Source: a virus. From it: DNA of 64,000 nucleotides. Location: positions 64,001 through 128,000 of IMG/VR virus record IMGVR_UViG_3300017761_003320; one strand, written 5' to 3'. Each line of letters begins with the position of its first letter. The first letter of the stretch is position 1. The translations under genes and the position numbers were made by a program. The notes beneath the pieces are model-generated. The model was given only the letters and a program-made list of their open reading frames with translations. It had not been told where the DNA came from and ran no database searches. Of the stretch, positions 5,775 through 36,380 are shown in pieces.

Positions 5775-5841
5775 CCCAACCGGCAGAGGTAGAGGACTTA
5801 AAATCCTTTCAGTGTCGGTTCGAATCCGACCGGGCCTACCA
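5765..5841 (+). tRNA. tRNA-Leu(TAA), short variable loop
   Basis: Acceptor GGGCCCG/CGGGCCT; anticodon loop CTTAAAA; TTCGAAT T-loop; A73 and CCA. Confidence 0.85.
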
Positions 5842-5847
5842 AAGTTC

Positions 5848-5919
5848 GAGCCCGTAGCTCAGCGGTAGAGCACGTGACTTTTAATCATGTGGTCGTGGGT
5901 TCAAATCCCACCGGGCTCT
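5848..5919 (+). tRNA. tRNA-Lys(TTT), no encoded CCA
   Basis: GAGCCCG/CGGGCTC acceptor; CGTGA-CTTTTAA-TCATG anticodon arm. Confidence 0.88.
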
Positions 5920-5922
5920 TTT

Positions 5923-5999
5923 GGACCTGTAGCTCAGTTGGTCAGAGCGGGCCGCTCATAACGGCTTGGTCGTAGGTTCGAGTCCTACCGGGTCCACCA
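5923..5999 (+). tRNA. tRNA(CAT), probably Ile2 (lysidine type)
   Basis: GGCCG-CTCATAA-CGGCT arm; C4-G69/C5-G68 TilS-type pairs; CCA. Met-elongator not excluded. Confidence 0.85.
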
Positions 6000-6011
6000 T
6001 ACATAATAATA

Positions 6012-6087
6012 GACTCCGTAGCTCAGTGGATAGAGCAACAGACTTCTAATCTGTGGGTCGCACGTTCAAGTCGTGCCGGGGTCGCCA
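6012..6087 (+). tRNA. tRNA-Arg(TCT)
   Basis: ACAGA-CTTCTAA-TCTGT arm; CCA end. Confidence 0.92.
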
Positions 6088-6108
6088 AATTGATTTGAGG
6101 AGAAAAAT

Positions 6109-7062
6109 GTGATTGATCGTAGAAATATGCTAATTGGATGTGCTGCTCTAACTGCATCTGCATCGGCCAATGCAAATCAAAACGAACTTAGTTTGATTGT
6201 TGGATCCGGTATTGGTGGATCTTCTGACGTATCAACTAGAATACTTGCGGCCCGGTTATCTACAGTCGGTATTGATGCAAGGGTTTCAAATAGACCAGCA
6301 GGTAATGGTGTTGAGGCTGCAATTCATATTCTATCGCAGCCCGCTAATAGTAATGCTTTATTATCTAACGGGCTTGGTGGAATTTTCTTAGCACCTGCTA
6401 GAGAGCGTCTTGCCTATGATAGTGATAGTCTTGCTCCAGTATGTATGTTTAGCATTGCATCTTTCGTATTTGCAGTCAAATCATCCTCTAGGTTTAAAAC
6501 GATTCATGATTTAATTGCGGCAGGAAAATCTGGCTCGATATCCATAGGTAATGGTGGCGCTGAGACACAATATACTGTAGCAAAATTTGCTGAGGCTTCA
6601 GGAACAAATGTTGTCAATGCAGTTTATAGAAGTGGTGGTATTGCAACACAGGATTTGATTGCGGGTGTGACTGATGCTGCATATATCTCCGTCGCATCAG
6701 CCGCCGGTCTTGTCTCTGCTGGTGAGGTAAGAATGTTGGCACATACTAATGTTGATGGTTCACATATTCCTGGATTTACTGAAGTGCCTCATATATTTAC
6801 GATTGGATCTAATGATCCTGGACTCTTATCTTATGGTTATCATGGCCTATATGCATCGCGTAACATGCCATCAACATTGATTAACGATATTGCTTCTAAG
6901 ATTGACCGTGTATGTCGAGATGATAAATTTATTGATGATCATAAGACTAGAGGTATGATGCCATTATTTAAAGGGCCGAATGATCTTAAAGAACATCATA
7001 AGATTATTCAAAATAATTTGGTTATTCCTTATATGGAATGGGCAAGGAGAACTTCAAAATGA
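6109..7062 (+). CDS. Tripartite tricarboxylate transporter substrate-binding protein (Bug/TctC family) with Tat signal
   Basis: DRRNML twin-Arg signal with AxA site; LIVGSGIGGSSDVSTR, NRPAGNG and YRSGGIATQDLIAGVTD match Bug family patterns. Confidence 0.8.
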   Translation: MIDRRNMLIGCAALTASASANANQNELSLIVGSGIGGSSDVSTRILAARLSTVGIDARVSNRPAGNGVEAAIHILSQPANSNALLSNGLGGIFLAPARERLAYDSDSLAPVCMFSIASFVFAVKSSSRFKTIHDLIAAGKSGSISIGNGGAETQYTVAKFAEASGTNVVNAVYRSGGIATQDLIAGVTDAAYISVASAAGLVSAGEVRMLAHTNVDGSHIPGFTEVPHIFTIGSNDPGLLSYGYHGLYASRNMPSTLINDIASKIDRVCRDDKFIDDHKTRGMMPLFKGPNDLKEHHKIIQNNLVIPYMEWARRTSK

Positions 7063-7301
7063 TAAATGATTTAAGAATAGTTCAAGACCATGGTTGGATT
7101 CAACAACCCGACGGTACGTTGGCTTGGGGCCCAACTAGATTTTGGATGGAATCTTTGGGTGATGATGGTCAATGGACTCAGCTTAAGGTTCATATGATTA
7201 ATGAACAACCTAATCCAGCAGATCCTCTTTATGAGCCATCTGATAATGGTCTAGGTTCTGAGGAGACTCTCGCGCATCGCACGAGAATGACTCTATCATA
7301 A
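7059..7301 (+). CDS. Hypothetical protein
   Basis: AAGGAG RBS; ATGA overlap with TctC stop. Confidence 0.6.
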   Translation: MINDLRIVQDHGWIQQPDGTLAWGPTRFWMESLGDDGQWTQLKVHMINEQPNPADPLYEPSDNGLGSEETLAHRTRMTLS

Positions 7302-7307
7302 TAGTTA

Positions 7308-7398
7308 CGGCGTGAGGGCTGGTGCTCACCAGGAGCTTATACCTCCTTAGGCAGCTGATTACTGTTGGGATAGGGTTCGATTCCCTACGCGCCGACCA
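7308..7398 (+). tRNA. Non-canonical tRNA with TAT anticodon (Ile, AUA-reading) and long variable arm
   Basis: Acceptor CGGCGTG/CGCGCCG; AGGAG-CTTATAC-CTCCT arm; TAGGG-TTCGATT-CCCTA T-arm; ACCA end; about 23-nt variable region. Confidence 0.75.
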
Positions 7399-7402
7399 AT
7401 TT

Positions 7403-7476
7403 GCGGGGTTCGTATAATGGCATTATCACAGCCTTCCAAGCTGAGGACACGAGTTCGATTCTCGTACCCCGCTCCA
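7403..7476 (+). tRNA. tRNA-Gly(TCC)
   Basis: GCGGGGT/ACCCCGC acceptor; CTTCCAA loop; U73 and CCA. Confidence 0.92.
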
Positions 7477-7618
7477 CCTCTTTCGGAACAACCAGAATTC
7501 CGAAAGCATTTTTGGGAATGGTTTGATTCACTACCGGCTAAGACTAGAAAGACATTTCACGAATATCCGTTAGATATGGCCACACTCTATTTTGAAAATA
7601 AGGTATGGCCCTTAGTGC

Positions 7619-7707
7619 GGGGAAGCTGCTCGGATGGCGGACGGGCACCGGACTGTAAATCCGGCACATAAGAAACGCAGTAGGTTCGAATCCTACCTTC
7701 CCCACCA
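7619..7707 (+). tRNA. tRNA-Tyr(GTA)
   Basis: GGGGAAG/CTTCCCC acceptor; CCGGA-CTGTAAA-TCCGG arm; longer variable region; CCA. Confidence 0.9.
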
Positions 7708-7718
7708 TATATAAGATT

Positions 7719-7979
7719 ATGACATATTCTCATGAAATGCTTCGCACCATAGCTCGTTGCATGTTCATAACACCCCTGAATCATATTCATGCCGGTTATG
7801 ATTGGCCTGCAAAGCAGAGAGAATGGGAATCTCTATCAAATAAAGATAGACAGATTTGGTTTGATAAAGTTATAGTTTGGTTGCAAGAATTAGAATCTAA
7901 AATGCCTGATTCTTATGATTTCTATATCAATCATTGGATAGCAGATTTAGATAATAGAAATCATCTTTTTAGTGAATAA
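7719..7979 (+). CDS. Hypothetical protein
   Basis: Open frame filling the gap between tRNA-Tyr and the convergent ATP-grasp gene. Confidence 0.55.
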   Translation: MTYSHEMLRTIARCMFITPLNHIHAGYDWPAKQREWESLSNKDRQIWFDKVIVWLQELESKMPDSYDFYINHWIADLDNRNHLFSE

Positions 7980-8926
7980 TATTTTTCAATCGCATGGTCG
8001 ATAATATGACCAGCAAGATTTTGCAAAGAACATGCTTCCGTCATTGGGAAATTTGCTGAAGGATTAACTTCACATAGTTTTAATCCATCTTTGGTTGGGA
8101 ATATATCAATTCTTCCCCATTCAATATTCAATGCATTTAAAGAATTTTCCACAAGATTTCTAATCTCAGTTGACGTTCTTATGGGAAGCTGCACTCTTCC
8201 TTCATCATTCGCAAAGGCAGCTTTAAATTTTGAATAGCCTGTAAATGATGGTGGAATAGCTTGCATGGTGCTTTGAATATTACGACCTCGCACACAATGC
8301 GCTGTTAATTGATAATTAAGTTCAATAAATTCCTGAGCAATCACAGTAGTATTATGGATGCTATATGGATTTTTTGGATCTGATGATAGTCGTCGAGAGA
8401 ATTGAGGATTCGGAAGGAATTTAATTAGATTACCTGCAATCATTTGTAATTCAAATTCATCTTTGCAGAGATAAACTCTTTCCGATCCAGCCGCAAATCT
8501 CCATTTAATTACACATGGATATCCTATTAAATCTCCTATTTCTTCGGCCGCATCATTATCTAATAGATTTACAAATATAGTTTTGGGTGTGGGTATTCCT
8601 GCCTTTACATATTTTTCGTGGGCAATGATCTTATCAAGAGCATCAATATGAGGTTCTAAATCTGTTACAAATATGCTACCATGGTTTTTTAATATGGATA
8701 ATTTTCTTAAATTTTCCGGATTCCAGTGAGCATGTCTCATGATAATAAGATCAGGTGGAATTATTTGTCGCCCATCTATGAATACATTATCACCAACCAC
8801 AGTGCACATTTCAGGATGCACATGAGTTGCATTTAAACCACGTCTTTCCATCTCATTAAGAAACCGCCAAGTTTCATAAAAATGAGATTTAGGCCAAGGA
8901 CTTGTTAATAACCATGCATTGATCAT
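7961..8926 (-). CDS. ATP-grasp ligase, RimK/LysX-like
   Basis: DK...GIPTPKT, GYPCVIK, IAQEFI and GRIDI...CEVNPSANF motifs. Confidence 0.85.
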   Translation of the reverse strand: MINAWLLTSPWPKSHFYETWRFLNEMERRGLNATHVHPEMCTVVGDNVFIDGRQIIPPDLIIMRHAHWNPENLRKLSILKNHGSIFVTDLEPHIDALDKIIAHEKYVKAGIPTPKTIFVNLLDNDAAEEIGDLIGYPCVIKWRFAAGSERVYLCKDEFELQMIAGNLIKFLPNPQFSRRLSSDPKNPYSIHNTTVIAQEFIELNYQLTAHCVRGRNIQSTMQAIPPSFTGYSKFKAAFANDEGRVQLPIRTSTEIRNLVENSLNALNIEWGRIDIFPTKDGLKLCEVNPSANFPMTEACSLQNLAGHIIDHAIEKYYSLKR

Positions 8927-9804
8927 TTGAACATTCTATCAATATATGATACTATATCTTTGGCATGATTTGATCCAAAATAATGGTCTCTACCAGAAAA
9001 CCCACCAGGAGAATTTACTTCACATATTACATATCCATTTGAGGATTTTAGAATATCAATTTTTGCTATTTCAATATTTAATGCATTTACTGCATCAATT
9101 ATAATAGTTTTCAATTTATCATTGATTTTATATTGTTCTCGTATACCATCATCTCTATTATTTGATATAAAAAAATCAACATTAGATTTAGGATATCTAA
9201 TTTGCGCTGCGATTGGTATTCTACCAATAACCCATGCTACTATGGTTGGCCCAGTGATTAATTCTTGTACCATAACTTTTTTTTGATATGGAAAGCGTAT
9301 TTGTATTTTTTTGCAATGTATGTAGATATCATCCAAGGTTTTACATAAGGCTACAAGTTCACCCCTTTGCGATAATATTGGTTTAATCACTACTGGTAGA
9401 TGTAGATTTTCTAAAACCATATCATCAAAAGGTATATCTATTGTGAGTGTTTTTGGTATTCTAACATTAGATTTATTTAAAATTTCTAATTGTTTCAATT
9501 TATTAGCACACATCAAATGTGCATCAATATTATTGATGCATTTAATTTTTAGTAATTTTAGCTTATTGATAAAATCGATACTGCTGCCATTGGTAGTTCT
9601 TATTAATACAATATCTGGTAAATTTTTTGGTATAGTTAGATTTGGATTTACTATTGAGGCATCAAACCCTAAAAATCTAAATTCATCAAGCAATCTTATA
9701 TTTTCATATTGACCACCTGGAACACCTTCAGATATTAAGGTATCACGATTAATTAGTTTTTCATCAATTGGTGCTTCTGATGTTAATATCCAAGCTTTCG
9801 CCAT
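8923..9804 (-). CDS. ATP-grasp ligase, RimK/LysX-like
   Basis: NK...RIPKT, LPVVIKP, MVQELI and KIDIL...ICEVNSPGGF motifs. Confidence 0.85.
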   Translation of the reverse strand: MAKAWILTSEAPIDEKLINRDTLISEGVPGGQYENIRLLDEFRFLGFDASIVNPNLTIPKNLPDIVLIRTTNGSSIDFINKLKLLKIKCINNIDAHLMCANKLKQLEILNKSNVRIPKTLTIDIPFDDMVLENLHLPVVIKPILSQRGELVALCKTLDDIYIHCKKIQIRFPYQKKVMVQELITGPTIVAWVIGRIPIAAQIRYPKSNVDFFISNNRDDGIREQYKINDKLKTIIIDAVNALNIEIAKIDILKSSNGYVICEVNSPGGFSGRDHYFGSNHAKDIVSYIDRMFK

Positions 9805-9807
9805 AAA

Positions 9808-10257
9808 TTAATTACACCAGCTTGTTTTGGCCTCACCAAAATATTCGCGCGCCAGACCTTCTGCGATTAATGAAGAACGCAGAGAGCGATTATCAATCAT
9901 TATATCACCAAGAACTCGGCCGCCATATTTGTCCCAATCCATAAGCATCACTTGTACACTAGATGCAGATGCGATTGCATTTTTGGTAAAATCTGTGGCT
10001 CGCTGCCCCATGATTGCTTCTTGCGGACATTGGGCGCGATGACCTTTTTCAGGAGTATCAACCCCATAGACCCTGACCGATATGCGTTGTGCAATCGGAG
10101 CAGGAATCCATGGAGCTTCAAATTGAACAGTATCCCCATCGACGACCCGGATCACTTTCCACGTATATGCTATGGCTTCTGGTGTTCTACCTAAAGCTGC
10201 AATAGCATAGATTAAAGTGGCCGCAAGAACGGCGATGAAAAATCCTGCTCTAATCAT
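9808..10257 (-). CDS. Thermonuclease (SNase family) with signal/anchor
   Basis: RVVDGDT, VRVYGVDTPE, DKYGGRVLG and EGLAREY motifs. Confidence 0.9.
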   Translation of the reverse strand: MIRAGFFIAVLAATLIYAIAALGRTPEAIAYTWKVIRVVDGDTVQFEAPWIPAPIAQRISVRVYGVDTPEKGHRAQCPQEAIMGQRATDFTKNAIASASSVQVMLMDWDKYGGRVLGDIMIDNRSLRSSLIAEGLAREYFGEAKTSWCN

Positions 10258-10571
10258 TTTGTTTTACGCTTACCCTTAGTAACAGGTGCTGGCGCAGCTA
10301 CCTTAGGTGCGCGAGGCTTGCGAATAACCTTAGCCTTCACCTCAGCCTTTACTTCTTCAATAGCAGCTTTGGCATCTTCGACATTGACCTTGCCGTCTTT
10401 GTTGACATCAAGCGGCGTCTTGGTTGCAACCGCGGCCTGAATATCTTCAGCATTTACCTTGCCGTCCTTATTGACGTCTAGCTTCGCAGTCGCTTCGGCC
10501 TTCACTTCTTCAAACTTTTTCTCAGCCTCAACTTTGCGTAGGCCAAGCCATGTTAGCAATTTAATAAACAT
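10254..10571 (-). CDS. Small protein with two EF-hand/dockerin-like Ca-binding loops and a basic tail
   Basis: LDVNKDGKVN(A/V)ED twice; GGAGG RBS before ATG 10571. Confidence 0.7.
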   Translation of the reverse strand: MFIKLLTWLGLRKVEAEKKFEEVKAEATAKLDVNKDGKVNAEDIQAAVATKTPLDVNKDGKVNVEDAKAAIEEVKAEVKAKVIRKPRAPKVAAPAPVTKGKRKTK

Positions 10572-10680
10572 ATCTTCCTCCACTTATACGCTTATGCGTA
10601 CCAATATGTATCCAACACGAGTGGTTAAGCATTGTCCTCCGATCTGGCTATCTAGTAATGTAGAAAGCCATGTTTAACCC

Positions 10681-12075: not shown

Positions 12076-12636
12076 ATGTCTATGAAACGTGACGATAAGG
12101 TACAGATTATCACCGACCTGCTGACTGCTGGTAACGGCCGCTTTACCGTGGCCGAACTTCTGGTCGCCGCAGGTACCGAGCGACGCTCTCGCTCGGCCAT
12201 CTTTCTGGCCCGCGAGCAGGGTATCGGCCTCGAGCCGATCCGCGACGGTCGCGAGGTGATTGCCTACCTTGACGCCAAGATTGGTTCGGCGCAGCGCGCC
12301 GCCGCCAATACGGCTGCTAAGGTGGCCAAGGCCGTCAAGCCTGCTAAGGTGGTCAAGGCGGTCGCCCCTGCTAAGGCGGTCAAGGTGGCTAAGGTGGCCA
12401 AGGCTCCGACTGCGGTCAAGCTGCCCAAGGGCGCCACTCCAGTCCCTGGTCAGCCTACGCAGTATGACATGCCGACGCCTAAGCGGTCTAGCTTCCGTGG
12501 GCCGCTTAGCCCGACCGAAAAGCTGGCTCAGATGCTCCAAGAAGATGGTCCTGCCATCGTGGCTATGGGCAAGCGTGATCTCGGCCCAGAGGGTGCCCTG
12601 GAGATTGAGGAAATCACCGAACAGAAGGTGGCCTAA
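12076..12636 (+). CDS. Putative DNA-binding early protein (HTH-like N-terminus, histone-H1-like Lys/Ala/Val/Pro region)
   Basis: AKVAKAVKPAKVVKAVAPAKAVKVAKVAK tract; GC-rich codon usage. Confidence 0.6.
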   Translation: MSMKRDDKVQIITDLLTAGNGRFTVAELLVAAGTERRSRSAIFLAREQGIGLEPIRDGREVIAYLDAKIGSAQRAAANTAAKVAKAVKPAKVVKAVAPAKAVKVAKVAKAPTAVKLPKGATPVPGQPTQYDMPTPKRSSFRGPLSPTEKLAQMLQEDGPAIVAMGKRDLGPEGALEIEEITEQKVA

Positions 12637-14227: not shown

Positions 14228-14917
14228 ATGAAACTGTTGAACATCGACGCAAATGCCAAGACGGTTAAGGGTCAGGGGCGTGGCTATATGACGGCCATCC
14301 TTTATCTGGCCCCAGCCGACGAGTCTGGCTATGAGGTCTGCCCGATGGCCAGCGCTGGCTGCCGCAAGGCTTGCCTTAACAAGGCTGGCATGGGTGCTTT
14401 CAGCACGGTGCAGGCTGCACGCATCGCCAAGACTCGCCTCTACTTCGAGGATCGCGCAGCCTTCATGGCACAGCTGGTATCCGAGGTGCGAGCCTTCATC
14501 CGCAAGGCAATTAAGCTTGGCCTTATCCCAGTGGTGCGCCTGAACGGCACCTCCGATATCCCGTGGGAGCGGGTGCCGGTCGAAGGTAAGGCTAACATCA
14601 TGGAGCTGTTCCCGTCGGTGCAGTTCTACGACTACACCAAGCGGCACAACCGTCGCAACTTGCCAGCCAATTATCACCTGACCTTCAGCCTGGCCGAGGA
14701 CAATGACTCGCGCGCGGGCGCGGCCGCGACCAACGGTGCCAATATCGCCGTGGTATTCCGCACGGACAAGTTTCCCACGACCTTCATGGGTATGCCCGTG
14801 GTCGATGGTGACGCCGACGACCTGCGGTTCCTCGACGGCCGCGGCGTGGTTGTTGGCCTCAAGGCTAAGGGTCCTGCCAAGAAGGATACCAGCGGGTTCG
14901 TGAGGGATGCAGCATGA
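14228..14917 (+). CDS. Phage Gp88-like protein (Cys-motif, radical-SAM-like fold suspected)
   Basis: CPMASAGCRKACL, VRLNGTSDI, FYDYTK, NYHLTFS and DGDADDLRFLD pattern. Confidence 0.7.
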   Translation: MKLLNIDANAKTVKGQGRGYMTAILYLAPADESGYEVCPMASAGCRKACLNKAGMGAFSTVQAARIAKTRLYFEDRAAFMAQLVSEVRAFIRKAIKLGLIPVVRLNGTSDIPWERVPVEGKANIMELFPSVQFYDYTKRHNRRNLPANYHLTFSLAEDNDSRAGAAATNGANIAVVFRTDKFPTTFMGMPVVDGDADDLRFLDGRGVVVGLKAKGPAKKDTSGFVRDAA

Positions 14918-20888: not shown

Positions 20889-21479
20889 TTGTCGGAAAGG
20901 ATATTAAGCGTCGCCTTGGGCGCGCTGATTGGTGCGGTATTGACCGCTTTTGCCATTGATATGGTTCATAGGGCGGATGCAGCTCCAGTCCAACCTGTCA
21001 TAGTGCAACAATATCACGGTGAACCAACCGTAAATGTATCGCTCTCAATTAATGATTTGGAGCTTGATATAACTTCACCAGATTTTGATATTGTAACATT
21101 GAGTCAAGCAGACATGCATTGTCTGGCCCACGCTATATACTATGAAGCGCGTGGTGAAAGATATGTTGGCATGTTAGCAGTGGCTAATGTTATTATGAAT
21201 AGGGTTTCAGACCCAGATTATCCGAAGTCCGTATGCGAAGTTACGCGCCAAAGGACTCGAACCACATGTCAATTTGAATATTATTGCAAAGTAGGCAATA
21301 GAATCCCACGTCATGATGACCCTCAGTGGCAGATGGCAAATGATCTAGCATTTCAAGTCATGTCAGGTAATGTTCCAGACCTCACCGATGGTGCGACTCG
21401 CTTTCATGCCATATCAGGATCGGCTGGCCATACCAGAAATGCAATCAGAATAGGATCTCACCTTTTCTATAGGAGATAA
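20889..21479 (+). CDS. Cell wall hydrolase, SleB/Hydrolase_2 family, N-terminal anchor
   Basis: CLAHAIYYEARGE, AVANVIMNRV, CQF, TDGATRFH and IGSHLFY motifs. Confidence 0.92.
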   Translation: MSERILSVALGALIGAVLTAFAIDMVHRADAAPVQPVIVQQYHGEPTVNVSLSINDLELDITSPDFDIVTLSQADMHCLAHAIYYEARGERYVGMLAVANVIMNRVSDPDYPKSVCEVTRQRTRTTCQFEYYCKVGNRIPRHDDPQWQMANDLAFQVMSGNVPDLTDGATRFHAISGSAGHTRNAIRIGSHLFYRR

Positions 21480-24193: not shown

Positions 24194-25138
24194 ATGACTA
24201 ATGACTTCGCTTCATTGAAGCGTTCTTCCACCAATAATCTGGATCGCCTTACTAAGGAGATCGGTAAGCTAGCAGGTGGCACCAATCAACGCGAATCCGA
24301 TGACCGTTTTTGGCAACCCGAGGTTGACAAGGCTGGTAATGGTTATGCGGTGATTCGTTTTCTTCCTGCTGCTAAGGGTGAGGATCTTCCCTGGGTTCGT
24401 ATTTGGTCGCATGGGTTTCAAGGCCCAGGTGGTTGGTATATCGAAAACTCTCTGACGACTCTTGGTCAGAAAGATCCAGTGGCCGAATTAAACTCTAAGC
24501 TGTGGAATAGCGGTAGTGATAAGGACAAGGAAATCGCTCGTAAACAAAAGCGGCGCCTTTCTTATATTGCTAACATCTATGTTGTCAAGGATCCTGCGAA
24601 TCCTCAAAATGAGGGTAAGGTCAAGCTGTTCAAGTTTGGTAAGAAGATTTTTGACAAGATCAATGAGATGATGACACCTCAGTTTGAAGATGAGAAGGCC
24701 GTCAATCCCTTCGATTTCTGGGCTGGTGCGAATTTCAAGCTGAAGATTCGCAACGTCGAGGGCTATCGTAATTATGACAAGTCAGAATTTGATCGTTCTG
24801 AACCTCTGTCTGATAATGATAGTGATCTTGAGAATATCTGGGCTTCGCAGCATAAGCTTCAAGCTTTTATTGCACCAGATCAATTCAAGACTTATGAAGA
24901 ATTAAAGACTCGCCTTGAACGTGTATTGAATGAGGCTGCTCCTCGTCGTGCATCAAATGATGAAGATAGTGAACGTGAGGAACGATCTGCATCACGCGCT
25001 TCAGCCGAGCCTAAGACTCGGAGTACTCTTGTAGAAACTCTTCCTAAGGCAGCTAGCGCCGGCGCTGGTGCTTCGGCCCGTCCACCATGGGAAGGTGATG
25101 ATATCAGCTTGTTTGAACGACTGGCTGAGGAAGATTAA
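24194..25138 (+). CDS. Single-stranded DNA-binding protein (T4 gp32-like)
   Basis: DDRFW, GNGYAVIRFLP, WYIENSLTT, GKKIFDKI and NYDKSEF motifs; acidic tail. Confidence 0.97.
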   Translation: MTNDFASLKRSSTNNLDRLTKEIGKLAGGTNQRESDDRFWQPEVDKAGNGYAVIRFLPAAKGEDLPWVRIWSHGFQGPGGWYIENSLTTLGQKDPVAELNSKLWNSGSDKDKEIARKQKRRLSYIANIYVVKDPANPQNEGKVKLFKFGKKIFDKINEMMTPQFEDEKAVNPFDFWAGANFKLKIRNVEGYRNYDKSEFDRSEPLSDNDSDLENIWASQHKLQAFIAPDQFKTYEELKTRLERVLNEAAPRRASNDEDSEREERSASRASAEPKTRSTLVETLPKAASAGAGASARPPWEGDDISLFERLAEED

Positions 25139-25144
25139 AATATT

Positions 25145-25174
25145 AAGGCGGGAGAAATTTCTCCCGCCTTTTTT
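25145..25174. terminator. Rho-independent terminator between convergent genes
   Basis: AAGGCGGGAG-AAATTT-CTCCCGCCTT-TTTT. Confidence 0.9.
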
Positions 25175-26906
25175 ATGGTGGTCGATTTCCATTTGGACGA
25201 GCTTGTGCTGATGGCGATGCTGCCGATGTAGTCGCTGGGGGTGATGGATTTGGTAGTTGAATTTGCCTTCTTACAGGAATTACTATAGGTGGTAACATGA
25301 TGGTACCAGAAGAAGGCATTTGTCCTTCCGACATTCTCAAACCTGCAATTCTAGAAGCCAATTCTGAAGATGTTATACTACCTGATCCTAAAGCAAGCAT
25401 CGCTTGATTTCTTTGTTCTTCTGATAAAAGTCCTGATGCGGATGAGGGCATTTCTCTCCTTAAATCAGGATTATTCATCATCATCTGAAGGCCTCTTGCT
25501 TCAGTCAAATAAGCAGTAGCTAATTCTATTCTTCTACGATTAAATTCTATCTGTCGTTCAGCCGAATTAATTAATTCTTCACTTTGTGGAGTTAACCCGC
25601 TTCTATTATATGGATTATTTCTTTCAGTTTGTATTGATCGTTCAGACACTTGTATAAGTCTTTCTGATTGACCAATACTTCTTTCTAAATTTCTTATATT
25701 TGCGCGAACTAGATTAGGATATGTTCTTACTTGACGTTGTGCCGCTTGCATTAACAAATTATTTCTACCAGGATCTTCGGGTCTTAGATTTCTCATACGT
25801 TCTAAATCAGCAGAGGCACGTTCAAATCCTAATGCATAATGTCTGGCAAGTTCTCCATATTCTTCTATCTCATTAACCTGCCTTTCTTCACGTGTTGTAT
25901 TTGCATAATATGCTATGGTTGGTACGATTGTTAGTGCAGTACCTATTACACCACTAAGTCTAGCAATACCAGCACCAGGAACACGTGCTGGTCTTCCACT
26001 ACTTATAGGTGCTCTACCACCAGGTTCTACTGTTGGTGCACGTGCAGGCGGGGGCCTTGGTTCTGCTGCAGGTGGTGTAGGTGCTGGTCTTGGTGGCGTT
26101 GGTGGCGGCCTAGATGGTGCCGGTGGTGCTGGACGTGATGGTGCCGGTGGTGCTGGACGTGATGGTGTCGGTGGTGCTGGACGTGATGGTGCCGGCGGTG
26201 CTGCCGGCCGTGTGGCAGCGGGTGATGATTGTCTTGGAAAAATTCTTTGAGATAATCTTTGTGAAAAACGATTGATTGCGCGGAATCCACGAAAAGCCAA
26301 GTAACTTCCTAATATAGCACCAGTAATTTCTGCTGCCAACATGAGTTCATCTGCAATCCGTAATATCTGACGAGGAAATTCATCAATTTGTTGAATTAAT
26401 TCAGGTGATAATTGTGTAGCTGCTAAAGCTGTGGCCAAACCAGCAAGACCGAGCCCACCTAAAATATTTGGTAAATTTCTAATAGTTGATCGAGTTCCAC
26501 GACCAATTGCACTAGCTATATTACCAATTCTTCTGGTATAGTTTCCTCTTGTATCATTTCCCTCAGCTCTATCTTCAAGATTACGGTTTTCTCTATTAAG
26601 CAATCTTTGTGTATCTTTTTGCTGAGATACTAACATTCTTCTTAATTCATTAGATGCAAGATAAGAATTTTCAGCTATTGATGACATCATTGCATATACA
26701 TCACGACGTAATGCATCAAATGAGCTTTGAGTTACATAATTTCTATCATCACCTATTCTATTAGGTACACCAGCAGTTAATTCTCTCCGTGCTCTTTCAG
26801 ATGAAACCATTCTATAATTCATGGCCATATCATGAAATCTTTTTGTGCGCTCATCATATATTATCGAGGTAGTCAATGTATTAGCTATATCTGTTAAAGA
26901 TGCCAT
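25173..26906 (-). CDS. Tape-measure/hub-like ejected protein with Pro-rich linker
   Basis: Position after gp26/gp51; helical with hydrophobic segments; PAPPAPSR repeats; only 2 Lys. Confidence 0.5.
   Translation of the reverse strand: MASLTDIANTLTTSIIYDERTKRFHDMAMNYRMVSSERARRELTAGVPNRIGDDRNYVTQSSFDALRRDVYAMMSSIAENSYLASNELRRMLVSQQKDTQRLLNRENRNLEDRAEGNDTRGNYTRRIGNIASAIGRGTRSTIRNLPNILGGLGLAGLATALAATQLSPELIQQIDEFPRQILRIADELMLAAEITGAILGSYLAFRGFRAINRFSQRLSQRIFPRQSSPAATRPAAPPAPSRPAPPTPSRPAPPAPSRPAPPAPSRPPPTPPRPAPTPPAAEPRPPPARAPTVEPGGRAPISSGRPARVPGAGIARLSGVIGTALTIVPTIAYYANTTREERQVNEIEEYGELARHYALGFERASADLERMRNLRPEDPGRNNLLMQAAQRQVRTYPNLVRANIRNLERSIGQSERLIQVSERSIQTERNNPYNRSGLTPQSEELINSAERQIEFNRRRIELATAYLTEARGLQMMMNNPDLRREMPSSASGLLSEEQRNQAMLALGSGSITSSELASRIAGLRMSEGQMPSSGTIMLPPIVIPVRRQIQLPNPSPPATTSAASPSAQARPNGNRPP
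26113..26210 (-). repeat. 24-bp tandem repeat (about 4 copies) encoding RPAPPAPS
   Basis: GATGGTGCCGGTGGTGCTGGACGT units on the + strand. Confidence 0.85.
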
Positions 26907-26917
26907 ATTGATTATCC

Positions 26918-28399
26918 TTAGACTCGTACAGGTACGATTTCTTCATGAATAAAAATCGTTTGTATTTGTGTAGTAGATTCCGGCCGGGCGGCCGCAGCTA
27001 TTCTATTTGTATTTTGAGGCATAGATGCTTCTGGAATAGGCATAGGTTGACCAGAAGATGTTGGTCGTGATGAATTTGATTCATTTTGAGGCTGTTGAGC
27101 TTCCGGCGCGCCACCTGTTGGAATTTGAGGTGATTCAGTTTCCGTTTGAGGTCGAGATTGAGATGTAGTTTGAGATGTAGTTTGACCTGCTGATGTTCGA
27201 GATGGTGCAGCAGGTCTAGATGCAACAGCCCCACGACTAGCTAATTTGTTTTCTAAATCATCTATCGTTATAAATCCGTCATTATTTACATCTAATATTG
27301 GATTTAATGAATAATAATTTTCCCCACGTTGTGTCAATACCCCATCACCGCGCGAGATTGCTGATGCAACTCTACCAGGTAAAAATACATGTGCATAAAT
27401 CATACCTGCGCTTGCACCTGAGGGTAGACCAGTCATTCTAAAATAACTCTCAACCAGTTGAAGTTGCTGCACAGCATCCATTTCTCTTATTGCAGCAGTA
27501 GTCGTACCTAATCTTCGCGCCGTACCTTCAGTAAATTGAATAAGGCCAGTTGCAGTTTGTCCAGGTAATGTATTACGTGCAGTAGTTCTGACTCCACTCT
27601 CAACTCTCATAACAGCTAGAAGATTAGCAGGATGAATACCTAATCTATTTGATACTGCTATAAGCTCTGCTTGGAATCTCGGATCACCTTCTACATTTCC
27701 TGTTGGGCCCATCTCTGGACGAAATCTTATATCACCCTCATTATATTCTTGAGTTTGCTGTTGACCAATACGAGGCTCTGTTTCTTCACCAAAAAGAAAA
27801 TTTGATAATCCATTAAATACTGTCTCTCGTCCCTCACGATATCCTTCACGAAATGTTCCACCTTCGACAGATCGTTGAACGCCTCTATATACACCAGCGG
27901 CCAGTGCAGCTAAACCTGCACCAGGTATAGTTCTTACGGCTATTCCGCGAGCAAGTCTGCGTGCTGTGCGTGCTATTTCTACGGCCGCTCTAGCTACAGA
28001 AATCGTGGCTCTAGCAATTAATGATGTTATTGCTTGTAAAATACCACTTGAATTTATATCTTCATTTTGTCTTGTATCTTCAATTTCTTCTTGTCTTTCA
28101 AATTGACGAGATTCTAATCTATCTTCTTCCTCTATTCGCTCTATTCTATCGACTATTGCACGTTGTTTGTCTTTTTCATCATTTATGCGGCGCAAAGTCT
28201 GAACCATTTCCCTAATGGATTCGCGAGATTTGATAAATGTTGATCCTATAGAACCACTAACAGTGTACATCATATTTGTGGCAGGACGCGATGGTCCAAT
28301 CCTTAGCAAAGAAGCAAATGGCAATAAAGCCAAACTTGTCTCTCTAGCACCAGGACCAGTAAGATTATATCTTTCTGTCGCATCAGCCAATGTGGCCAT
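26918..28399 (-). CDS. Tape-measure/hub-like protein with lytic transglycosylase (SLT-like) domain
   Basis: LLAVMRVESG catalytic Glu, ATGLIQF, QLQLVESYF and LDVNNDGFIT motifs. Confidence 0.7.
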   Translation of the reverse strand: MATLADATERYNLTGPGARETSLALLPFASLLRIGPSRPATNMMYTVSGSIGSTFIKSRESIREMVQTLRRINDEKDKQRAIVDRIERIEEEDRLESRQFERQEEIEDTRQNEDINSSGILQAITSLIARATISVARAAVEIARTARRLARGIAVRTIPGAGLAALAAGVYRGVQRSVEGGTFREGYREGRETVFNGLSNFLFGEETEPRIGQQQTQEYNEGDIRFRPEMGPTGNVEGDPRFQAELIAVSNRLGIHPANLLAVMRVESGVRTTARNTLPGQTATGLIQFTEGTARRLGTTTAAIREMDAVQQLQLVESYFRMTGLPSGASAGMIYAHVFLPGRVASAISRGDGVLTQRGENYYSLNPILDVNNDGFITIDDLENKLASRGAVASRPAAPSRTSAGQTTSQTTSQSRPQTETESPQIPTGGAPEAQQPQNESNSSRPTSSGQPMPIPEASMPQNTNRIAAAARPESTTQIQTIFIHEEIVPVRV

Positions 28400-28400
28400 A

Positions 28401-28580
28401 TTACTGAGCGTTCCTCTTTGCTTCTTCTTTTTCTATAAAATCTAGCAGAAGTTTAACGTATATTTCCCTCTCCCAAGGTATCATATTTTCTATCTCATAC
28501 AAACTATACTTGTGATGTTGCATAAGCGAAAAATTCAATGAATAATAATTTCCAAGATTATTGTGAGAGAGGGCTATCAA
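28401..28580 (-). CDS. Baseplate hub assembly protein (T4 gp51-like), not in ORF track
   Basis: LIALSHNNLGNYYSLNFSLMQHHKYSLYEIENMIPWEREIYVKLL; in the -1 frame relative to gp26. Confidence 0.85.
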   Translation of the reverse strand: MIALSHNNLGNYYSLNFSLMQHHKYSLYEIENMIPWEREIYVKLLLDFIEKEEAKRNAQ

Positions 28581-29290
28581 AAAAAATCTGCTAGACCTTT
28601 TAGCTTTACAGTATCAACTTGTCCACAACCAGAACACTTATAAGTTATTTCATGCTCCAATATTGGCATTGTATCAAAAAATTTCATTATATCTGCAAAT
28701 TGCATATTGCTAAGAGAACCAATAAATTCTTTCACCTCATCTAAGCTTTCTGGCTCATATACTTCTTCATCATCAAAAACGCATTCAAAGCATTTTGATA
28801 TTAAATCTGTTTCATCAACTTCAGGCTGTAACATATCTCCCACTTCTTTCATAGTGGGATATTTCATTCTAACAGTAAGCTTATCATTCAATTTTATATC
28901 TTTTGAATGCTCAGGATCAAACTTGACTTCAATGGCATCAAGGTCAATCTCGACTGTTGTTATTGCATCACAGCTTTCGCCTTTATAATTTACACCATCA
29001 ACATGTCGATATCTAAGAGTTGCTTTTTCGCTAACTGATTTTGACCTGACTTTAAGAAACAAATATTCAAGATCGAAAGAAGGTAGCTTGGTTATATTGA
29101 CATCTTCCGTTAAAATGCAAGCTGATAGTGTGTCTATCATTGCACGATACATATGATCCACATCTTTTGATTCCATAGCAATCAAAAGAGTCTTTTCTTC
29201 TTTTACAAGAAAAGGTCTAAATGTTACCTCCTTTTTTGATGACGGTATAGCCGCAGTAAAGGTCGGGGTAACTATTTTTGGTAAAGCCAT
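28577..29290 (-). CDS. Baseplate hub assembly chaperone (T4 gp26-like)
   Basis: MALPK, FRPFLVKEEK, FDLEYLFLKVRSKSV, MKYP and C-terminal CxxC...GLADFF. Confidence 0.9.
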   Translation of the reverse strand: MALPKIVTPTFTAAIPSSKKEVTFRPFLVKEEKTLLIAMESKDVDHMYRAMIDTLSACILTEDVNITKLPSFDLEYLFLKVRSKSVSEKATLRYRHVDGVNYKGESCDAITTVEIDLDAIEVKFDPEHSKDIKLNDKLTVRMKYPTMKEVGDMLQPEVDETDLISKCFECVFDDEEVYEPESLDEVKEFIGSLSNMQFADIMKFFDTMPILEHEITYKCSGCGQVDTVKLKGLADFF

Positions 29291-32440: not shown

Positions 32441-33019
32441 ATGCCTCATTATTTCTCAGCTTTTCCGACAATTAATTATGCTTTACCTAGTCTTAACAAG
32501 ACTAATACGGTCACCGATATCACAAGAAGATTTGTGATCAGAGATTTTTATAAGAAAAACTTATTTTCATTTTTTAAATATGATATTACTGATGGTAATC
32601 GACCTGATAGTGTTGCTTATGAGTTATATGGCGATTCTACTTTAGATTGGCTAATATTATTACCAAATGAAATAATTGACCCATATTTTCAATGGCCTTT
32701 AGATCAAAATCGATTTAATGAATTTATTAGAAAAAAATATGGTAGTGTATCTACAGCGATGGGCACTATACATCATTATGAACAAATAATACAAAATAGA
32801 TTAGAGACTGTAAATTCAGACGGTGAAAAGATTTTTGTGCCTGAACGTACTCTTCAGGTAGATCAAACAACATACTTATCACTTTCTGCCAATGCTAAAA
32901 AAGAAATCACTGCATATGATTATGAATTAGCTAAAAATGAAAGAAATAGAACAATATCTGTAATTGATATCGTATATGTACCTAGTATAGTGGATAGATT
33001 TAGGAATCTGTACATATGA
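32441..33019 (+). CDS. Baseplate wedge subunit (T4 gp53-like)
   Basis: YFSAFP, RPDSVAYELYG...WLILLPNEIIDP..QWP and YELAKNE motifs. Confidence 0.9.
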   Translation: MPHYFSAFPTINYALPSLNKTNTVTDITRRFVIRDFYKKNLFSFFKYDITDGNRPDSVAYELYGDSTLDWLILLPNEIIDPYFQWPLDQNRFNEFIRKKYGSVSTAMGTIHHYEQIIQNRLETVNSDGEKIFVPERTLQVDQTTYLSLSANAKKEITAYDYELAKNERNRTISVIDIVYVPSIVDRFRNLYI

Positions 33020-34332
33020 CAACGCCTCAACAGGCATCTGGTTCAGGTTTAATACAAGCTTTAACTATAAGATCGGCCACTCAACAGCAATCGCAAATAG
33101 ATTTCAGACAAATCGCATCTGAAATTAGCTATTATGAATCTATTGACGCACCTGGTTTTACTTTAACTGCAACTCTGCTAGACGGAGCAGGATTTAGAAC
33201 TGCTGTACCTTTAACTGGGGGTGAAGAAGTATTCTTTTCATTTTCAGATAGCGAACAAAATTCACCCAGAATATCTGGGTCGGCGATAGTATCAAAATTA
33301 GTAGATAAGGTTAGAGCAAAAGAAAGTTTAGATTCTTATTCTTTGTTTTTGTATCCAAAAGAACTCATGTTGCATAATTATGAAATTGTGGATACTTCAT
33401 TTAAATCTCGTAAAATAGAAGATATAGCAAAAACTATAGTTCAAAATCATATTACTCCAATAAACGGTAGAACTTTAACAACAGTAGAACCTACTTTGGG
33501 TCAATTTACAACTATTTTTCCTAGAATTAGTCCATTTACAGCATTGAATTATTTGGCCGGAGAAGCTCAATCGGCTGACACAAAAAGTTCATCCAGATAT
33601 TTTTTCTTTGATACCAACAAAGGATATGTGTTTGCTTCATTGCAATATTTGATGAAGCAACAGATTAAAAGAAAATTTACTTTGATAGAAGAACGTATTC
33701 CAGGTGATAGTCAATATGAAAGAAACCGCATAGTATCGATGGAAGAAAGAGTTGCATTTGACTTGGGGGAAGGTGTAGCATCTGGTCAATTAGGAACTCA
33801 AATTTTATCATTAGATCCAGTAGCAAAAAGATTTAGATCGACACAATATCTTTATAATAGAGATTATTCATCAATTGATCATATATCTCAGGAAAGAAGA
33901 CTTACTGCAAGAGTTGCCCAACAATTTGGTACAAGATTTTCTAGAGAAGCTTTTATAGTTACTAATTCTCATCAATCAACTTTACCATATGTTACTGAAC
34001 GAGAATCTTCAATACAGCAAAGTTATAGAAGACGTCAAGATTTTCTAGGAGTTGAAACTGCTGCGACTGCGGATATTTCATCAAATATAACGGTGATAAC
34101 AGTTCACGGCGATTCAACCTTACATGCAGGTGATACTATAGAAATTATGGTTCCTATTACAGGAGATAGAACAATAAGAGACCGTGCAATGGATAATCTT
34201 GCAAGCGGTAAATACTTAGTTACAGCTGTGGCCCATCGCATTACTACAGGGGGTTTAACATATGTAACTGTTCTTGAATGTGTGAAAGATGCATTTATAA
34301 AGCGTGTAGAAAATATAGTAAGGGATAGTTAA
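33016..34332 (+). CDS. Baseplate hub protein (gp27-like)
   Basis: Position between gp53 and gp5; YYESI, YFFFD, HGDSTLHAGD and SGKYLVTAVAH motifs. Confidence 0.65.
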   Translation: MTTPQQASGSGLIQALTIRSATQQQSQIDFRQIASEISYYESIDAPGFTLTATLLDGAGFRTAVPLTGGEEVFFSFSDSEQNSPRISGSAIVSKLVDKVRAKESLDSYSLFLYPKELMLHNYEIVDTSFKSRKIEDIAKTIVQNHITPINGRTLTTVEPTLGQFTTIFPRISPFTALNYLAGEAQSADTKSSSRYFFFDTNKGYVFASLQYLMKQQIKRKFTLIEERIPGDSQYERNRIVSMEERVAFDLGEGVASGQLGTQILSLDPVAKRFRSTQYLYNRDYSSIDHISQERRLTARVAQQFGTRFSREAFIVTNSHQSTLPYVTERESSIQQSYRRRQDFLGVETAATADISSNITVITVHGDSTLHAGDTIEIMVPITGDRTIRDRAMDNLASGKYLVTAVAHRITTGGLTYVTVLECVKDAFIKRVENIVRDS

Positions 34333-34333
34333 T

Positions 34334-35575
34334 ATGCCGATTCGTTCACCTGAGTGGATGGGAAACAACGGGTTTGTATGGTTTGTCGGAATCGTCGAAG
34401 ATAGATTTGACCCTCTTGGTATAGGTCGAGTTCGTGTTAGATGTTTTGGTTGGCACACCGAAAATAAAGAATCACTACCTACATCATCTCTGCCATGGGC
34501 TCAGGTTTTGATGCCAGCAAATTCGGCATCTATTAGTGGTGTCGGTTCATCACCAACAGGTTTAGCTGAAGGTAGCTGGGTTGTTGGATTTTTTATGGAT
34601 GGTAGTACTGCTCAGACACCTATGGTATTAGGATCATTTCACGGTGTTCCTGGTGATGCTGGTAATTCTTCGCAAGGATTTGGTGACCCATACGGAACAT
34701 ATCCTCTTGCTAAAGGTATACCTGATACATCTATGCTATCAATAGGTAATGATGCATATTTGGAGCATCCTAATACTAAAGATCGTATATCCACCAGAGT
34801 TACAGATGTGCCTGAGGCCGCAATACGTAAAGCATCATCTGTAGCCTTTGATGATACAGATGATACTACATATGAAACCCCAACTTGGAATCAACCTGAA
34901 TTACAGGGTCTTACTACACCACCATCATATCCTTTTAATCATGTTCGCACCACTGAATCTGGTCATACATTTGAAGTAGATGATACTGTTGGTGCTAGAC
35001 GTATACATGAATATCATGCATCTGGGACTAATAGAGAAATTATAGATGATGGAACCAGAGTCACTCGAATAATTGGTGATGATTATGAAATTGTTGTTAG
35101 AGATAAAAAAGTAATTGTATTTGGATCATGTAGCGTAACTATTGCTGGTGATGCTAGATTAAGAGTTGACGGTGATTTAATTCATGAAATTTTAGGTAAT
35201 TATCATTTGAGTGTCAAAGGAGATATGATTTCTAAAATAGAAGGCAATCGTAGCACAGAAATTTTAGGATCAGAGATAACACAGATCAATACAAATGATT
35301 CAAAAACTGTTGGTGGTACAAGAAACAGAGTAGTTGGATCAACAACCATAGAAACCTATGGTGATGCCATACAAAAGACCATTGGTGGAAATGTTACAGA
35401 GATAATCAAAGGTGACAAGCTTGTTGCAACTTCAGGCAAGACAACACATTTGGCAGGAACATCTATGGAAGTCGGCGCTGGTACAGATATGACATTAGCA
35501 GGTAAATCAACAGTGACAGTCAATTCTATAGGTCCAACCACAATCAAAGGTTCAAGAGTGGATTTAAACCCATGA
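34334..35575 (+). CDS. Baseplate central spike (T4 gp5-like; no lysozyme domain)
   Basis: WFVGIVEDRFDP..GRVRVR, LPWA, YPFNHV..TESGH; beta-helix repeats; ends DLNP. Confidence 0.92.
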   Translation: MPIRSPEWMGNNGFVWFVGIVEDRFDPLGIGRVRVRCFGWHTENKESLPTSSLPWAQVLMPANSASISGVGSSPTGLAEGSWVVGFFMDGSTAQTPMVLGSFHGVPGDAGNSSQGFGDPYGTYPLAKGIPDTSMLSIGNDAYLEHPNTKDRISTRVTDVPEAAIRKASSVAFDDTDDTTYETPTWNQPELQGLTTPPSYPFNHVRTTESGHTFEVDDTVGARRIHEYHASGTNREIIDDGTRVTRIIGDDYEIVVRDKKVIVFGSCSVTIAGDARLRVDGDLIHEILGNYHLSVKGDMISKIEGNRSTEILGSEITQINTNDSKTVGGTRNRVVGSTTIETYGDAIQKTIGGNVTEIIKGDKLVATSGKTTHLAGTSMEVGAGTDMTLAGKSTVTVNSIGPTTIKGSRVDLNP

Positions 35576-35597: not shown

Positions 35598-36380
35598 ATG
35601 AGCGGAACTAGAACTGCCATAGCTGTCGCAGCGACTGCTGCTGTAGCCGCTCTTGCTTTACGAGAATTGAGATCGGCAAATACTTCACCTGGAGCTACAC
35701 CAAATTGTGCTGCTGGTCCTTTAGCTGAAGTGTCTCGACAATTATCTCAGGTTTCATCCGCACTTAACAATGCTGTACAATCATTGGCCTCATTACCTAG
35801 CCAAATTGAAAGTCAAGTTAATGCGGCAATCAACAGTGCTCTTAGTACTGCAATTGGTCCAGTGCGAACTCAAGCAAATGCGATTGCAAATGAATTAAAT
35901 CAGCTTTTACAGTTTTTAAATGATCCCGCTAGATTTCTAGCACAGTGGATCAATATGCAAACATTATTTCCAAATTTGGATCTCCGTTCATTAGTTAATC
36001 GTCTATTATCAGGTCTTGGTGTATGCGCCGCCTCTAATTCGCCACCACCATCGACTAATTCTGCTGTTGCCGGACCTCCACCAGCCCAGCAAGCACAACC
36101 CCCACAAGCTAATTCTTCACCAAATTCATCAGTCGTTGCTCAAGGGTCAGCACTTCCTATTCCTGTAACAGTGCAACCACTATCTGGCCCACAGCCTTCT
36201 TCTGCACAGAATACATTAGGCGCACTTAGATTTCAAGAATCAGCAAGATTAGAAGTTCAAAGATATAGACTTCAATTAGAACGTTCTTTTACGTCTGATC
36301 CAACTGAAAGGCAGAGATTGCAATCCGAAATAGATGATATTCGAGACCGTTTATCATCATTAGCAGCTCCAACTAGCTAA
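35598..36380 (+). CDS. Hypothetical baseplate-associated protein (lysine-free)
   Basis: Between gp5 and gp25; hydrophobic N-terminus, helical, Pro/Ser/Gln linker. Confidence 0.6.
   Translation: MSGTRTAIAVAATAAVAALALRELRSANTSPGATPNCAAGPLAEVSRQLSQVSSALNNAVQSLASLPSQIESQVNAAINSALSTAIGPVRTQANAIANELNQLLQFLNDPARFLAQWINMQTLFPNLDLRSLVNRLLSGLGVCAASNSPPPSTNSAVAGPPPAQQAQPPQANSSPNSSVVAQGSALPIPVTVQPLSGPQPSSAQNTLGALRFQESARLEVQRYRLQLERSFTSDPTERQRLQSEIDDIRDRLSSLAAPTS

Follow-up and report, generated by a model that had tools for sequence, protein, structure and literature searches.

The stretch of DNA analysed here, in the following referred to as the window, comprises 64,000 nucleotides and represents bases 64001-128000 of the 155,201-bp viral contig IMGVR_UViG_3300017761_003320, for which terminal repeats and a GC content of 42% were identified. 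Judged by its gene content the phage is a T4-like myovirus, with recognisable T4-type genes for gp32, gp26, gp2, gp4, gp48, gp53, gp5, gp25, gp6-8, gp18, gp19 and the portal protein, and by its sheath protein (approximately 50% identity) the closest named relatives are phages of Stenotrophomonas, Ochrobactrum, Pelagibacter, Methylophilales, Sinorhizobium and Caulobacter. Subject of this work are three of its proteins, termed ORFA, ORFB and ORFC, which are unstructured, are nearly devoid of lysine (Lys, K) and probably fill the tail from which they are shot into the host.

The tape-measure slot and its gene products

ORFA (577 amino acids (aa); 25173-26906, minus strand) and ORFB (493 aa; 26918-28399, minus strand) occupy the slot between gp26/gp51 and gp32, which is bordered by the gene of the baseplate hub assembly protein gp26 (28577-29290, minus strand; Pfam T4_baseplate, E 8e-56) on the one edge and by that of the single-strand DNA-binding protein gp32 (24194-25138, plus strand) on the other. 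The gene order gp26, (gp51), ORFB, ORFA, gp32 is shared with the phages Cr30, DLP_6 and phiM12, whereby a small gp51-like gene is seen in relatives, and the identical order was found in the relatives L085, L087 and L157. The gene located in this slot is annotated as 'tail tape measure protein' in Cr30, as a 720-aa 'lysozyme' in DLP_6 and by 'similarity to tape measure' in phiM12. The prediction that ORFB and ORFA are tape-measure/ejection proteins of a T4-like contractile tail is well supported.

No relative of ORFA was detected in Pfam, PHROG or the PDB, neither tblastn against 50,697 phage records nor a megablast search of the region against the phage records returned a match, and in the ESM Atlas ORFA led only to unnamed viral clusters. 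Likewise, a PDB profile search with ORFA as well as Foldseek on its model revealed generic helical bundles only. The ORFA family comprises 24 representatives among 1.84 billion proteins, outside of which no sequence relatives were found. The AlphaFold model of ORFA predicts helices of 35-55 residues, a disordered Pro-rich linker (aa 223-316), a confident helical bundle (aa 340-528) and a Pro-rich tail, and a 24-nt tandem repeat of 3.8 copies (26113-26203, minus strand) codes for a Pro-rich octapeptide repeat of the protein. Two Gly/Ala-rich hydrophobic segments are present (aa 145-166 and aa 314-332) and the net charge amounts to +22. By its predicted structure, ORFA hence shows the layout of a tape measure, with extended helices, a Pro-rich region and putative membrane-inserting segments. 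The T4 tape measure gp29 shows this layout of helices, Pro-rich and hydrophobic segments and was reported to form an inner-membrane channel (bioRxiv 10.64898/2026.03.06.709160).

ORFB consists of a conserved N-terminal part of approximately 150 aa, a central domain and a C-terminal S/T/Q/P-rich tail, and its PHROG matches are labelled baseplate hub, transglycosylase and endolysin. Its residues 240-379 (27263-27682, minus strand) match Pfam SLT with 25.5 bits (cut-off 21.3) and were found to be related to the PDB entries 9udh_A (E 3.5e-14) and 9k2v_E, an internal protein of the cyanophage A4 pre-ejectosome (E 2e-8), whereby the catalytic Glu motif E-S of ORFB aligns with E-T of the solved enzyme 9udh_A. 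This part of ORFB is, by sequence, a lytic transglycosylase domain of the SLT/phage tail lysozyme type with predicted activity; the solved SLT homolog contains 11 Lys in the aligned 135 residues as compared to none in the ORFB domain. The needle protein gp5 (34334-35575, plus strand) is matched in PHROG by its OB and C-terminal parts only, and its relatives carry Gp5_OB and Gp5_trimer_C. As gp5 is only 413 aa long and no lysozyme domain was detected in it, ORFB probably supplies the wall-cutting activity which gp5 appears to lack.

ORFC (260 aa; 35598-36380, plus strand) is encoded between gp5 and gp25 and possesses an N-terminal hydrophobic segment as well as an A/S/Q/P-rich low-complexity body. 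Neither a family match nor relatives of known kind were identified for it in Pfam and PHROG, and the ESM Atlas returned nothing. A protein with 0-4 Lys is kept at this position in relatives, and ORFC probably joins ORFA and ORFB as a low-complexity component of the hub or tail lumen. In the window, no PAAR gene lies between gp5 and ORFC; the relative L157 has one there.

Lysine depletion and the selection that maintains it

ORFA contains Lys at residues 22 and 97 only next to 73 arginines (Arg, R), ORFB possesses Lys at residues 57, 76, 78 and 385 next to 50 Arg, and ORFC combines 17 Arg with the complete absence of Lys. Across the whole genome, the share of Lys among both residues, K/(K+R), is 0.495 (Lys 5.7%, Arg 5.8%; 190 ORFs in the 155-kb genome), and binomial testing against this background yielded p values of 1.4e-19 for ORFA, 2.9e-11 for ORFB and 8.9e-6 for ORFC. 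Two further proteins, the tail tube protein gp19 (62384-62941, plus strand; 2 Lys in 185 aa, 12 Arg) and a SleB-like cell wall hydrolase with an N-terminal hydrophobic segment (20889-21479, plus strand; 2 Lys in 196 aa, 15 Arg), gave p values of 7e-3 and 1e-3 respectively, which are marginal among 190 genes. The neighbouring gp26 (23K/6R, 9.7% Lys) served as Lys-rich internal control and gp32 (27K/22R) as cytoplasmic control. All Lys counts that a first-pass annotation of the window had given for ORFA, ORFB, ORFC, gp19, SleB and gp26 were reproduced, and the depletion, which that annotation would have given up had it fallen within the genome-wide distribution, makes ORFA, ORFB and ORFC the extreme outliers of the genome.

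The Lys-free runs of ORFA (480 residues), ORFB (306) and ORFC (260) exceed all others in the genome, whereas for a simulated protein of 577 aa the 99.9th percentile of the Lys-free run is reached at 171 residues. These runs qualify as lysine deserts, a term applied to uninterrupted stretches without Lys that span 150 residues or more, or else 50% of the protein or more (PMC13696103); the runs are conserved in homologs down to approximately 45% identity and are not explained by GC content.

All three proteins are A/P/S/R-rich low-complexity sequences, and the GC content at third codon positions (GC3) of their genes is 0.16-0.20 as compared to a genome mean of 0.36. AGA makes up 40 of the 73 Arg codons of ORFA, and the share of AGR among Arg codons was found to be 0.48-0.62 in ORFA, ORFB and ORFC and 0.77 in a phage-encoded TctC protein described below, versus 0.31 elsewhere. 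Within the phage genome, the Lys percentage does not track composition, as seen when it was regressed on other composition variables. With a GC3 of 0.16-0.20 and Arg being mostly encoded by AGA, base composition cannot account for the loss of Lys and is ruled out as its cause, which is the point the first-pass annotation had made when describing the tape-measure-like genes as AGA-using and not GC-rich. A shortage or cleavage of tRNA-Lys is ruled out as well, since Lys is present in further essential late proteins and a tRNA-Lys is encoded by the phage itself: tRNA-Lys(TTT), tRNA-Met and tRNA-Arg(TCT) are located at 5848-6087 (plus strand; Aragorn on the genome, coordinates converted to the window), so that the phage tRNA set decodes both AAA and AGA.

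The depletion is specific for a lineage. The tape measures of T4 (gp29; 60K/13R) and Cr30 (60K/11R) as well as the slot proteins of DLP_6 (55K/21R) and phiM12 (33K/26R) are rich in Lys, and among 91 slot proteins from 58 other T4-like loci the median K/(K+R) is 0.61 with a minimum of 0.35; equally Lys-poor orthologs in phages of unrelated hosts, named beforehand as the outcome that would speak against selection, were therefore not seen. The total of basic residues is nearly the same in ORFA (13.0%), T4 gp29 (12.4%) and the Cr30 tape measure (12.6%), and it ranges from 8.6 to 13.8% in ORFA-family members of at least 200 aa. Within this family K/(K+R) varies from 0.03 to 0.42, and in the family tree nearly Lys-free lineages are interspersed with lineages having 17-25 Lys. 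Lys was thus swapped for Arg in this clade only, with the basic charge being conserved. The idea that the composition was inherited from the tape measures of GC-rich phages is ruled out by the Lys-rich slot proteins of phiM12 and of DLP_6, the latter having a GC content of 56%.

Comparison with close relatives allowed following the fate of new lysines. Most proteins encoded in the region are 93-100% identical between the window and its sister phage L087, with ORFA (73%) and ORFC (72%) departing from this, and for both genes a synonymous divergence (dS) of approximately 0.31 and a ratio of nonsynonymous to synonymous divergence (dN/dS) of 0.6-0.7 were determined, as compared to a dS of 0-0.05 for the nine genes in between. 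ORFA and ORFC thereby appear as two separate hypervariable patches in an otherwise near-identical phage, and their equal divergence suggests that alleles are exchanged or selected together; possibly the two proteins interact.

Between the window and L087, none of the 205 amino-acid differences in ORFA, ORFB and ORFC involves Lys, as opposed to 14 of 142 in neighbouring genes (p 2.5e-6), and towards the more distant L085 Lys is involved in 29 of 870 differences in the three proteins versus 180 of 1578 in other genes (p 4e-13). The exchange of Arg and Lys at Arg sites, normally the commonest change (50/166), is reduced to 12/147 in the three proteins. The absence of Lys among the substitutions spans all sites, beyond those occupied by Arg, and Lys was kept out through a protein divergence of 27%. 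Furthermore, the Lys counts of ORFA and ORFB co-vary, the pairs being (2,4), (2,4), (3,4), (5,6), (17,9) and (25,9) in six genomes, which amount to four independent lineages, with the window and L087 being near-identical.

Proteins in the ORFB slot share only their first approximately 150 residues, whereas their C-terminal wall-degrading domains have been swapped between lineages, yielding SLT (window 26918-28399), VgrG3-C/GH46-like and Phage_lysozyme2 domains (L158:742-2130; L159:1802-3190). All three of these non-homologous muralytic domains are free of Lys. In the near-Lys-free lineages the remaining lysines of ORFA and ORFB lie within the first approximately 100 residues, the one exception being residue 385 of ORFB in the window. 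That purifying selection removes new Lys from ORFA and ORFB, the N-terminal approximately 100 residues excepted, is well supported. The selection against Lys claimed by the first-pass annotation is hence borne out by lineage specificity, the opposing base composition, the kept charge, the lack of Lys among the 205 differences, the co-variation of ORFA with ORFB and the convergence of the swapped domains.

Further proteins of the phage and hints at its host

Outside of the tail lumen, a periplasmic binding protein of the TctC/Bug type with signal peptide is encoded 5.9 kb past the end of the window (L089:5900-6856; genome 133900-134856) and contains 2 Lys next to 26 Arg. Its gene directly follows that of a 1710-aa fibre protein, and homologs likewise follow fibre genes in at least two further phages, a T4-like contig and the unrelated-looking L091. 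Lys is scarce in all 13 members of the phage TctC clade (1-7 Lys, 22-27 Arg), as compared to a median K/(K+R) of 0.52 in 107 more distant, mostly bacterial homologs. The seven signal-peptide proteins of the phage have a pooled K/(K+R) of 0.19, placing the exported category between the lumen (0.04) and the baseplate (0.41), which is followed by head (0.47) and non-virion proteins (0.53). The Sec substrates of neutrophiles show the opposite direction in that they prefer Lys (PMC9110029).

Two of the proteins with which the first-pass annotation had supported its claim, gp19 and SleB, do not serve as evidence. For gp19 (4K/12R in Cr30) as for SleB (median K/(K+R) of 0.19 in 100 more distant homologs) low Lys is a trait of the family, and in Cr30 and T4 both gp19 and gp54 likewise contain little Lys; gp19, gp54 and SleB were consequently dropped as support for Lys exclusion.

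Several further observations were made. A curli-type operon of the phage encodes a CsgG-like lipoprotein (L128:1290-2045; genome 39290-40045) with 6 Lys and 20 Arg, which is Lys-poorer than 25 of 27 bacterial homologs, and a bacterial curli locus (L140, 46% GC) encodes CsgG and CsgE proteins that are similarly Lys-poor. The opposite extreme of K/(K+R) within the structural module is a 74-aa protein with 14 Lys and 1 Arg (49063-49287), encoded directly after a 2101-aa structural protein. On the minus strand at 7961-10583, two RimK-like ATP-grasp genes, an SNase gene whose product has an N-terminal hydrophobic segment and the gene of a 109-aa protein form one run; the latter protein consists of 19% Lys and 17% Asp+Glu, shows EF-hand/dockerin-like calcium-binding motifs and might be a substrate of the RimK-like ligases. 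Finally, two genes (12076-12636 and 14228-14917) have a GC content of 60-62% in this 42% GC genome and are probably recent acquisitions; one is without family and the other matches Pfam GP88.

Concerning the host, those members of the distant SleB homolog set that carry a name belong without exception to the Alphaproteobacteria, for the most part to the Rhodobacterales, and 11 of the 17 phage tRNAs (window 5765-7707; genome 34899-62812) read A/U-ending codons, among them Arg-TCT, Lys-TTT, Leu-TAA and Ile-TAT. Both findings hint at a GC-rich proteobacterial host, much GC-richer than the phage itself. Because the phage carries kdsA and csgG-like genes, the host probably possesses an outer membrane. 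Scanning a genome collection for TctC revealed only a 26% match in a metagenome-assembled genome of Polaromonas, the TctC tree placed the phage clade on a long branch without an informative sister group, and a search of 401 genomes for the CsgG-like protein yielded no taxon names.

Candidate causes and known systems

The near-total exclusion of Lys from all kinds of sites and from unrelated domains, while the charge is kept, speaks for harm done by the residue as such, with a single Lys sufficing. A covalent reaction or a cleavage accounts for exclusion to this degree more readily than a physical preference acting in a graded manner. The T4 tape measure has its C-terminus at the hub, whereas its N-terminus lies where the tube meets the DNA (PMC12929629); if this orientation holds here, the Lys-tolerant N-terminal part would leave the tail last. 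The affected set, i.e., unfolded ejected chains plus a periplasmic protein, together with the spared DNA-proximal end favours a hazard located outside of the cytoplasm. Some agent would accordingly attack there the epsilon-amino groups of lysines within unfolded polypeptides, whereby a single hit would suffice to abort DNA delivery, and candidates would be a transpeptidase-type enzyme that captures the chain covalently on peptidoglycan, or a Lys-specific endopeptidase. Long, natively unfolded chains that are extruded through wall and membrane would be the most exposed and hence Lys-free, with folded proteins being able to keep some or all of their Lys. Such an extracytoplasmic, Lys-directed hazard for unfolded ejected chains is the cause we infer, as it fits best, albeit tentatively and with a chance of being correct that we place somewhat short of even. 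Reactive aldehydes, which had been proposed initially as a periplasmic cause, are chemically weak candidates, as Arg also reacts with such compounds. A more specific version, which has to be regarded as speculative and rather doubtful, takes the Lys-free tail-lumen proteins as the footprint of a new anti-phage barrier in the envelope of a freshwater bacterium, where an enzyme would make use of Lys amino groups in an extruded tape measure, for instance by linking the chain to peptidoglycan or by cutting after Lys, and would thus stop DNA entry. If this were true, the Lys content of tape measures would mark the phage lineages facing the barrier.

Several points weigh against the extracytoplasmic hazard. 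Packaging and ejection of ORFA, ORFB and ORFC are predicted from their genes, and homology of ORFA to gp29 is undetectable by sequence. The gradient among virion classes is modest and in part reflects a genome-wide shift relative to Cr30, and the trend among exported proteins may be largely inherited, with bacterial SleB homologs being equally Lys-poor and 2 of 27 bacterial CsgG homologs likewise. In addition, folded proteins which enter the periplasm first are not free of Lys, as seen for gp5 (15K/21R), the gp27-like hub protein (33016-34332, plus strand; 16K/32R) and the PAAR protein of a relative (4K/2R); the gp27-like protein is moderately Arg-shifted as compared to its Cr30 counterpart (37K/16R). 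The initial claim of a near-total Lys exclusion from proteins entering the host envelope was therefore narrowed: gp5, the gp27-like protein and the relative's PAAR do not follow it, and the rule rather concerns chains that are ejected unfolded, together with some of the exported proteins.

Instead of Lys being harmful, Arg may be positively needed, with its guanidinium group staying charged and binding phosphates bidentately. An Arg-only tape measure may insert into or cross the membrane better, similar to arginine-rich penetrating peptides, or, in the envelope of this host, Arg may provide a firmer hold on DNA, lipopolysaccharide or the tube lumen. Such a need is compatible with the basic content being kept while the identity of the residue was switched, with the net charge of ORFA combined with membrane-like Gly/Ala segments, with the channel formed by the T4 tape measure in the inner membrane (bioRxiv 10.64898/2026.03.06.709160) and with translocated toxin chains being equally biased for Arg over Lys, the latter according to London and Luongo 1989 as cited in PMC13696103. 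Yet Lys is missing from substitutions at all sites and not at Arg sites alone, and a graded biophysical benefit should yield partial rather than near-total depletion. Moreover, a low Lys content extends to enzymatic domains (SLT, lysozyme-type) and to the folded TctC, and 55-60 Lys do not keep the tape measures of T4, Cr30 and DLP_6 from functioning, which renders a need for Arg with Lys being harmless unlikely.

Alternatively, the hazard could reside in the cytoplasm and act during assembly, where a ubiquitin-like conjugation system of the host (Bil/Bub type) or a Lys-acylating defence would tag newly made tail-core proteins. A bulky adduct on the chain within the tube would block assembly or ejection, and the phage would have escaped by dropping the acceptor lysines. 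Tagging of a phage tail protein by a ubiquitin-like modifier, which blocks tail assembly, provides a precedent (bioRxiv 10.1101/2023.09.04.556158), and lysine deserts represent the classical means of evading tagging at Lys (PMC13696103). Near-total exclusion likewise points to a single-hit lethal event, and a lineage-specific pattern which is labile on the family tree is expected if only some hosts carry the defence. However, the known Bil targets are central tail fibres rather than tape measures, the system would need to tag three different proteins, the Lys-poor periplasmic TctC is left unexplained, and so is the tolerance of Lys in the N-terminal approximately 100 residues, unless a chaperone shields that end. 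Taken together, conjugation at assembly is judged to be distinctly unlikely.

That no selection acts on Lys directly, the depletion being a by-product of low complexity, of a GC-rich donor followed by silent-site amelioration or of adaptation to high external pH, is very improbable and largely refuted by the substitution test: it could draw on the A/P/S/R-rich low complexity of the proteins, on the GC-rich host suggested by 11 of 17 tRNAs, on the inherited low Lys of SleB and on the Arg preference of alkaliphile secretomes (PMC9110029), but a GC3 of 0.16-0.20 favours AAA, higher-GC T4-like phages such as DLP_6 (56% GC) keep Lys-rich tape measures, Lys stays out through 27% protein divergence, the effect far exceeds the alkaliphile shift, and the runs with near-identical DNA, which stem from 17 studies, are ordinary freshwater or lake metagenomes where the habitat is named, except for one crustacean metagenome, which rules out soda-lake alkalinity.

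Among known systems, the counterparts in T4 (gp29), Cr30, phiM12 and DLP_6 resemble ORFA and ORFB in occupying the gene slot beside gp26/gp51. T4 gp29 is of similar length (590 aa versus 577 aa of ORFA), has a similar basic content (approximately 12-13% in both) and shares the layout of helices, Pro-rich and hydrophobic segments, and DLP_6 carries a muralytic domain inside the slot as ORFB does. In contrast to T4, where one protein with approximately 10% Lys is found, two proteins with 0.3-0.8% Lys are present here, and no homology to gp29 is detectable. A further parallel is provided by the cyanophage A4 pre-ejectosome (9k2v), whose transglycosylase domain is homologous to that of ORFB and whose enzyme is delivered from inside the virion, as is predicted for ORFB. 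The A4 proteins belong to the capsid core of a podovirus, as opposed to the tail lumen of a myovirus here, and Lys exclusion is unreported for such ejection proteins. T5 pb2 is likewise an ejection/internal protein with a wall-degrading domain.

With respect to Lys, the A chains of AB toxins and other lysine deserts come close, as these are, in the account given by PMC13696103 (with London and Luongo 1989 cited there), long Lys-free and Arg-retaining stretches which cross a membrane unfolded and face Lys-directed tagging. In that account the agent is eukaryotic ubiquitin, whereas here a phage and a Gram-negative envelope are concerned and the agent is only hypothesised. A Lys-directed host defence acting on a tail-core protein is known with Bil, where a single adduct disables the tail (bioRxiv 10.1101/2023.09.04.556158); Bil acts in the cytoplasm and on the central fibre of siphophages, and escape by loss of Lys is unreported for it. 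Sec substrates show a location-dependent Lys/Arg bias, with an alkaliphile preferring Arg and neutrophiles preferring Lys, but the effect described here is far larger (PMC9110029). In the literature searched, lysine deserts are reported for toxins, proteins of the ubiquitin system and Mycobacterium phages, and no report of Lys-free tape measures in a low-GC phage was found. As the tape measures of contractile tails are normally Lys-rich, a clade that purged Lys while keeping the charge, and did so repeatedly and with selection continuing, points to an undescribed chemical vulnerability at the step of DNA delivery. If the agent is a host factor, it would represent a new kind of defence, acting on ejected proteins rather than on DNA, and K/(K+R) of tail-lumen proteins would be a sequence marker for finding the phages and hosts concerned.

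The closest precedent among phages is that of the Mycobacterium phages, for whose Lys-depleted proteins the evasion of a Lys-directed host system, pupylation, was proposed (PMC10665810, PMC13696103). There, the depletion is proteome-wide and confounded by a GC content of approximately 65%, whereas the phage described here has a GC content of 42%, the affected genes have a GC3 of approximately 0.2 or less, and few proteins are concerned. The present case hence allows testing the lysine-desert idea without the GC confound that persists in Mycobacterium phages.

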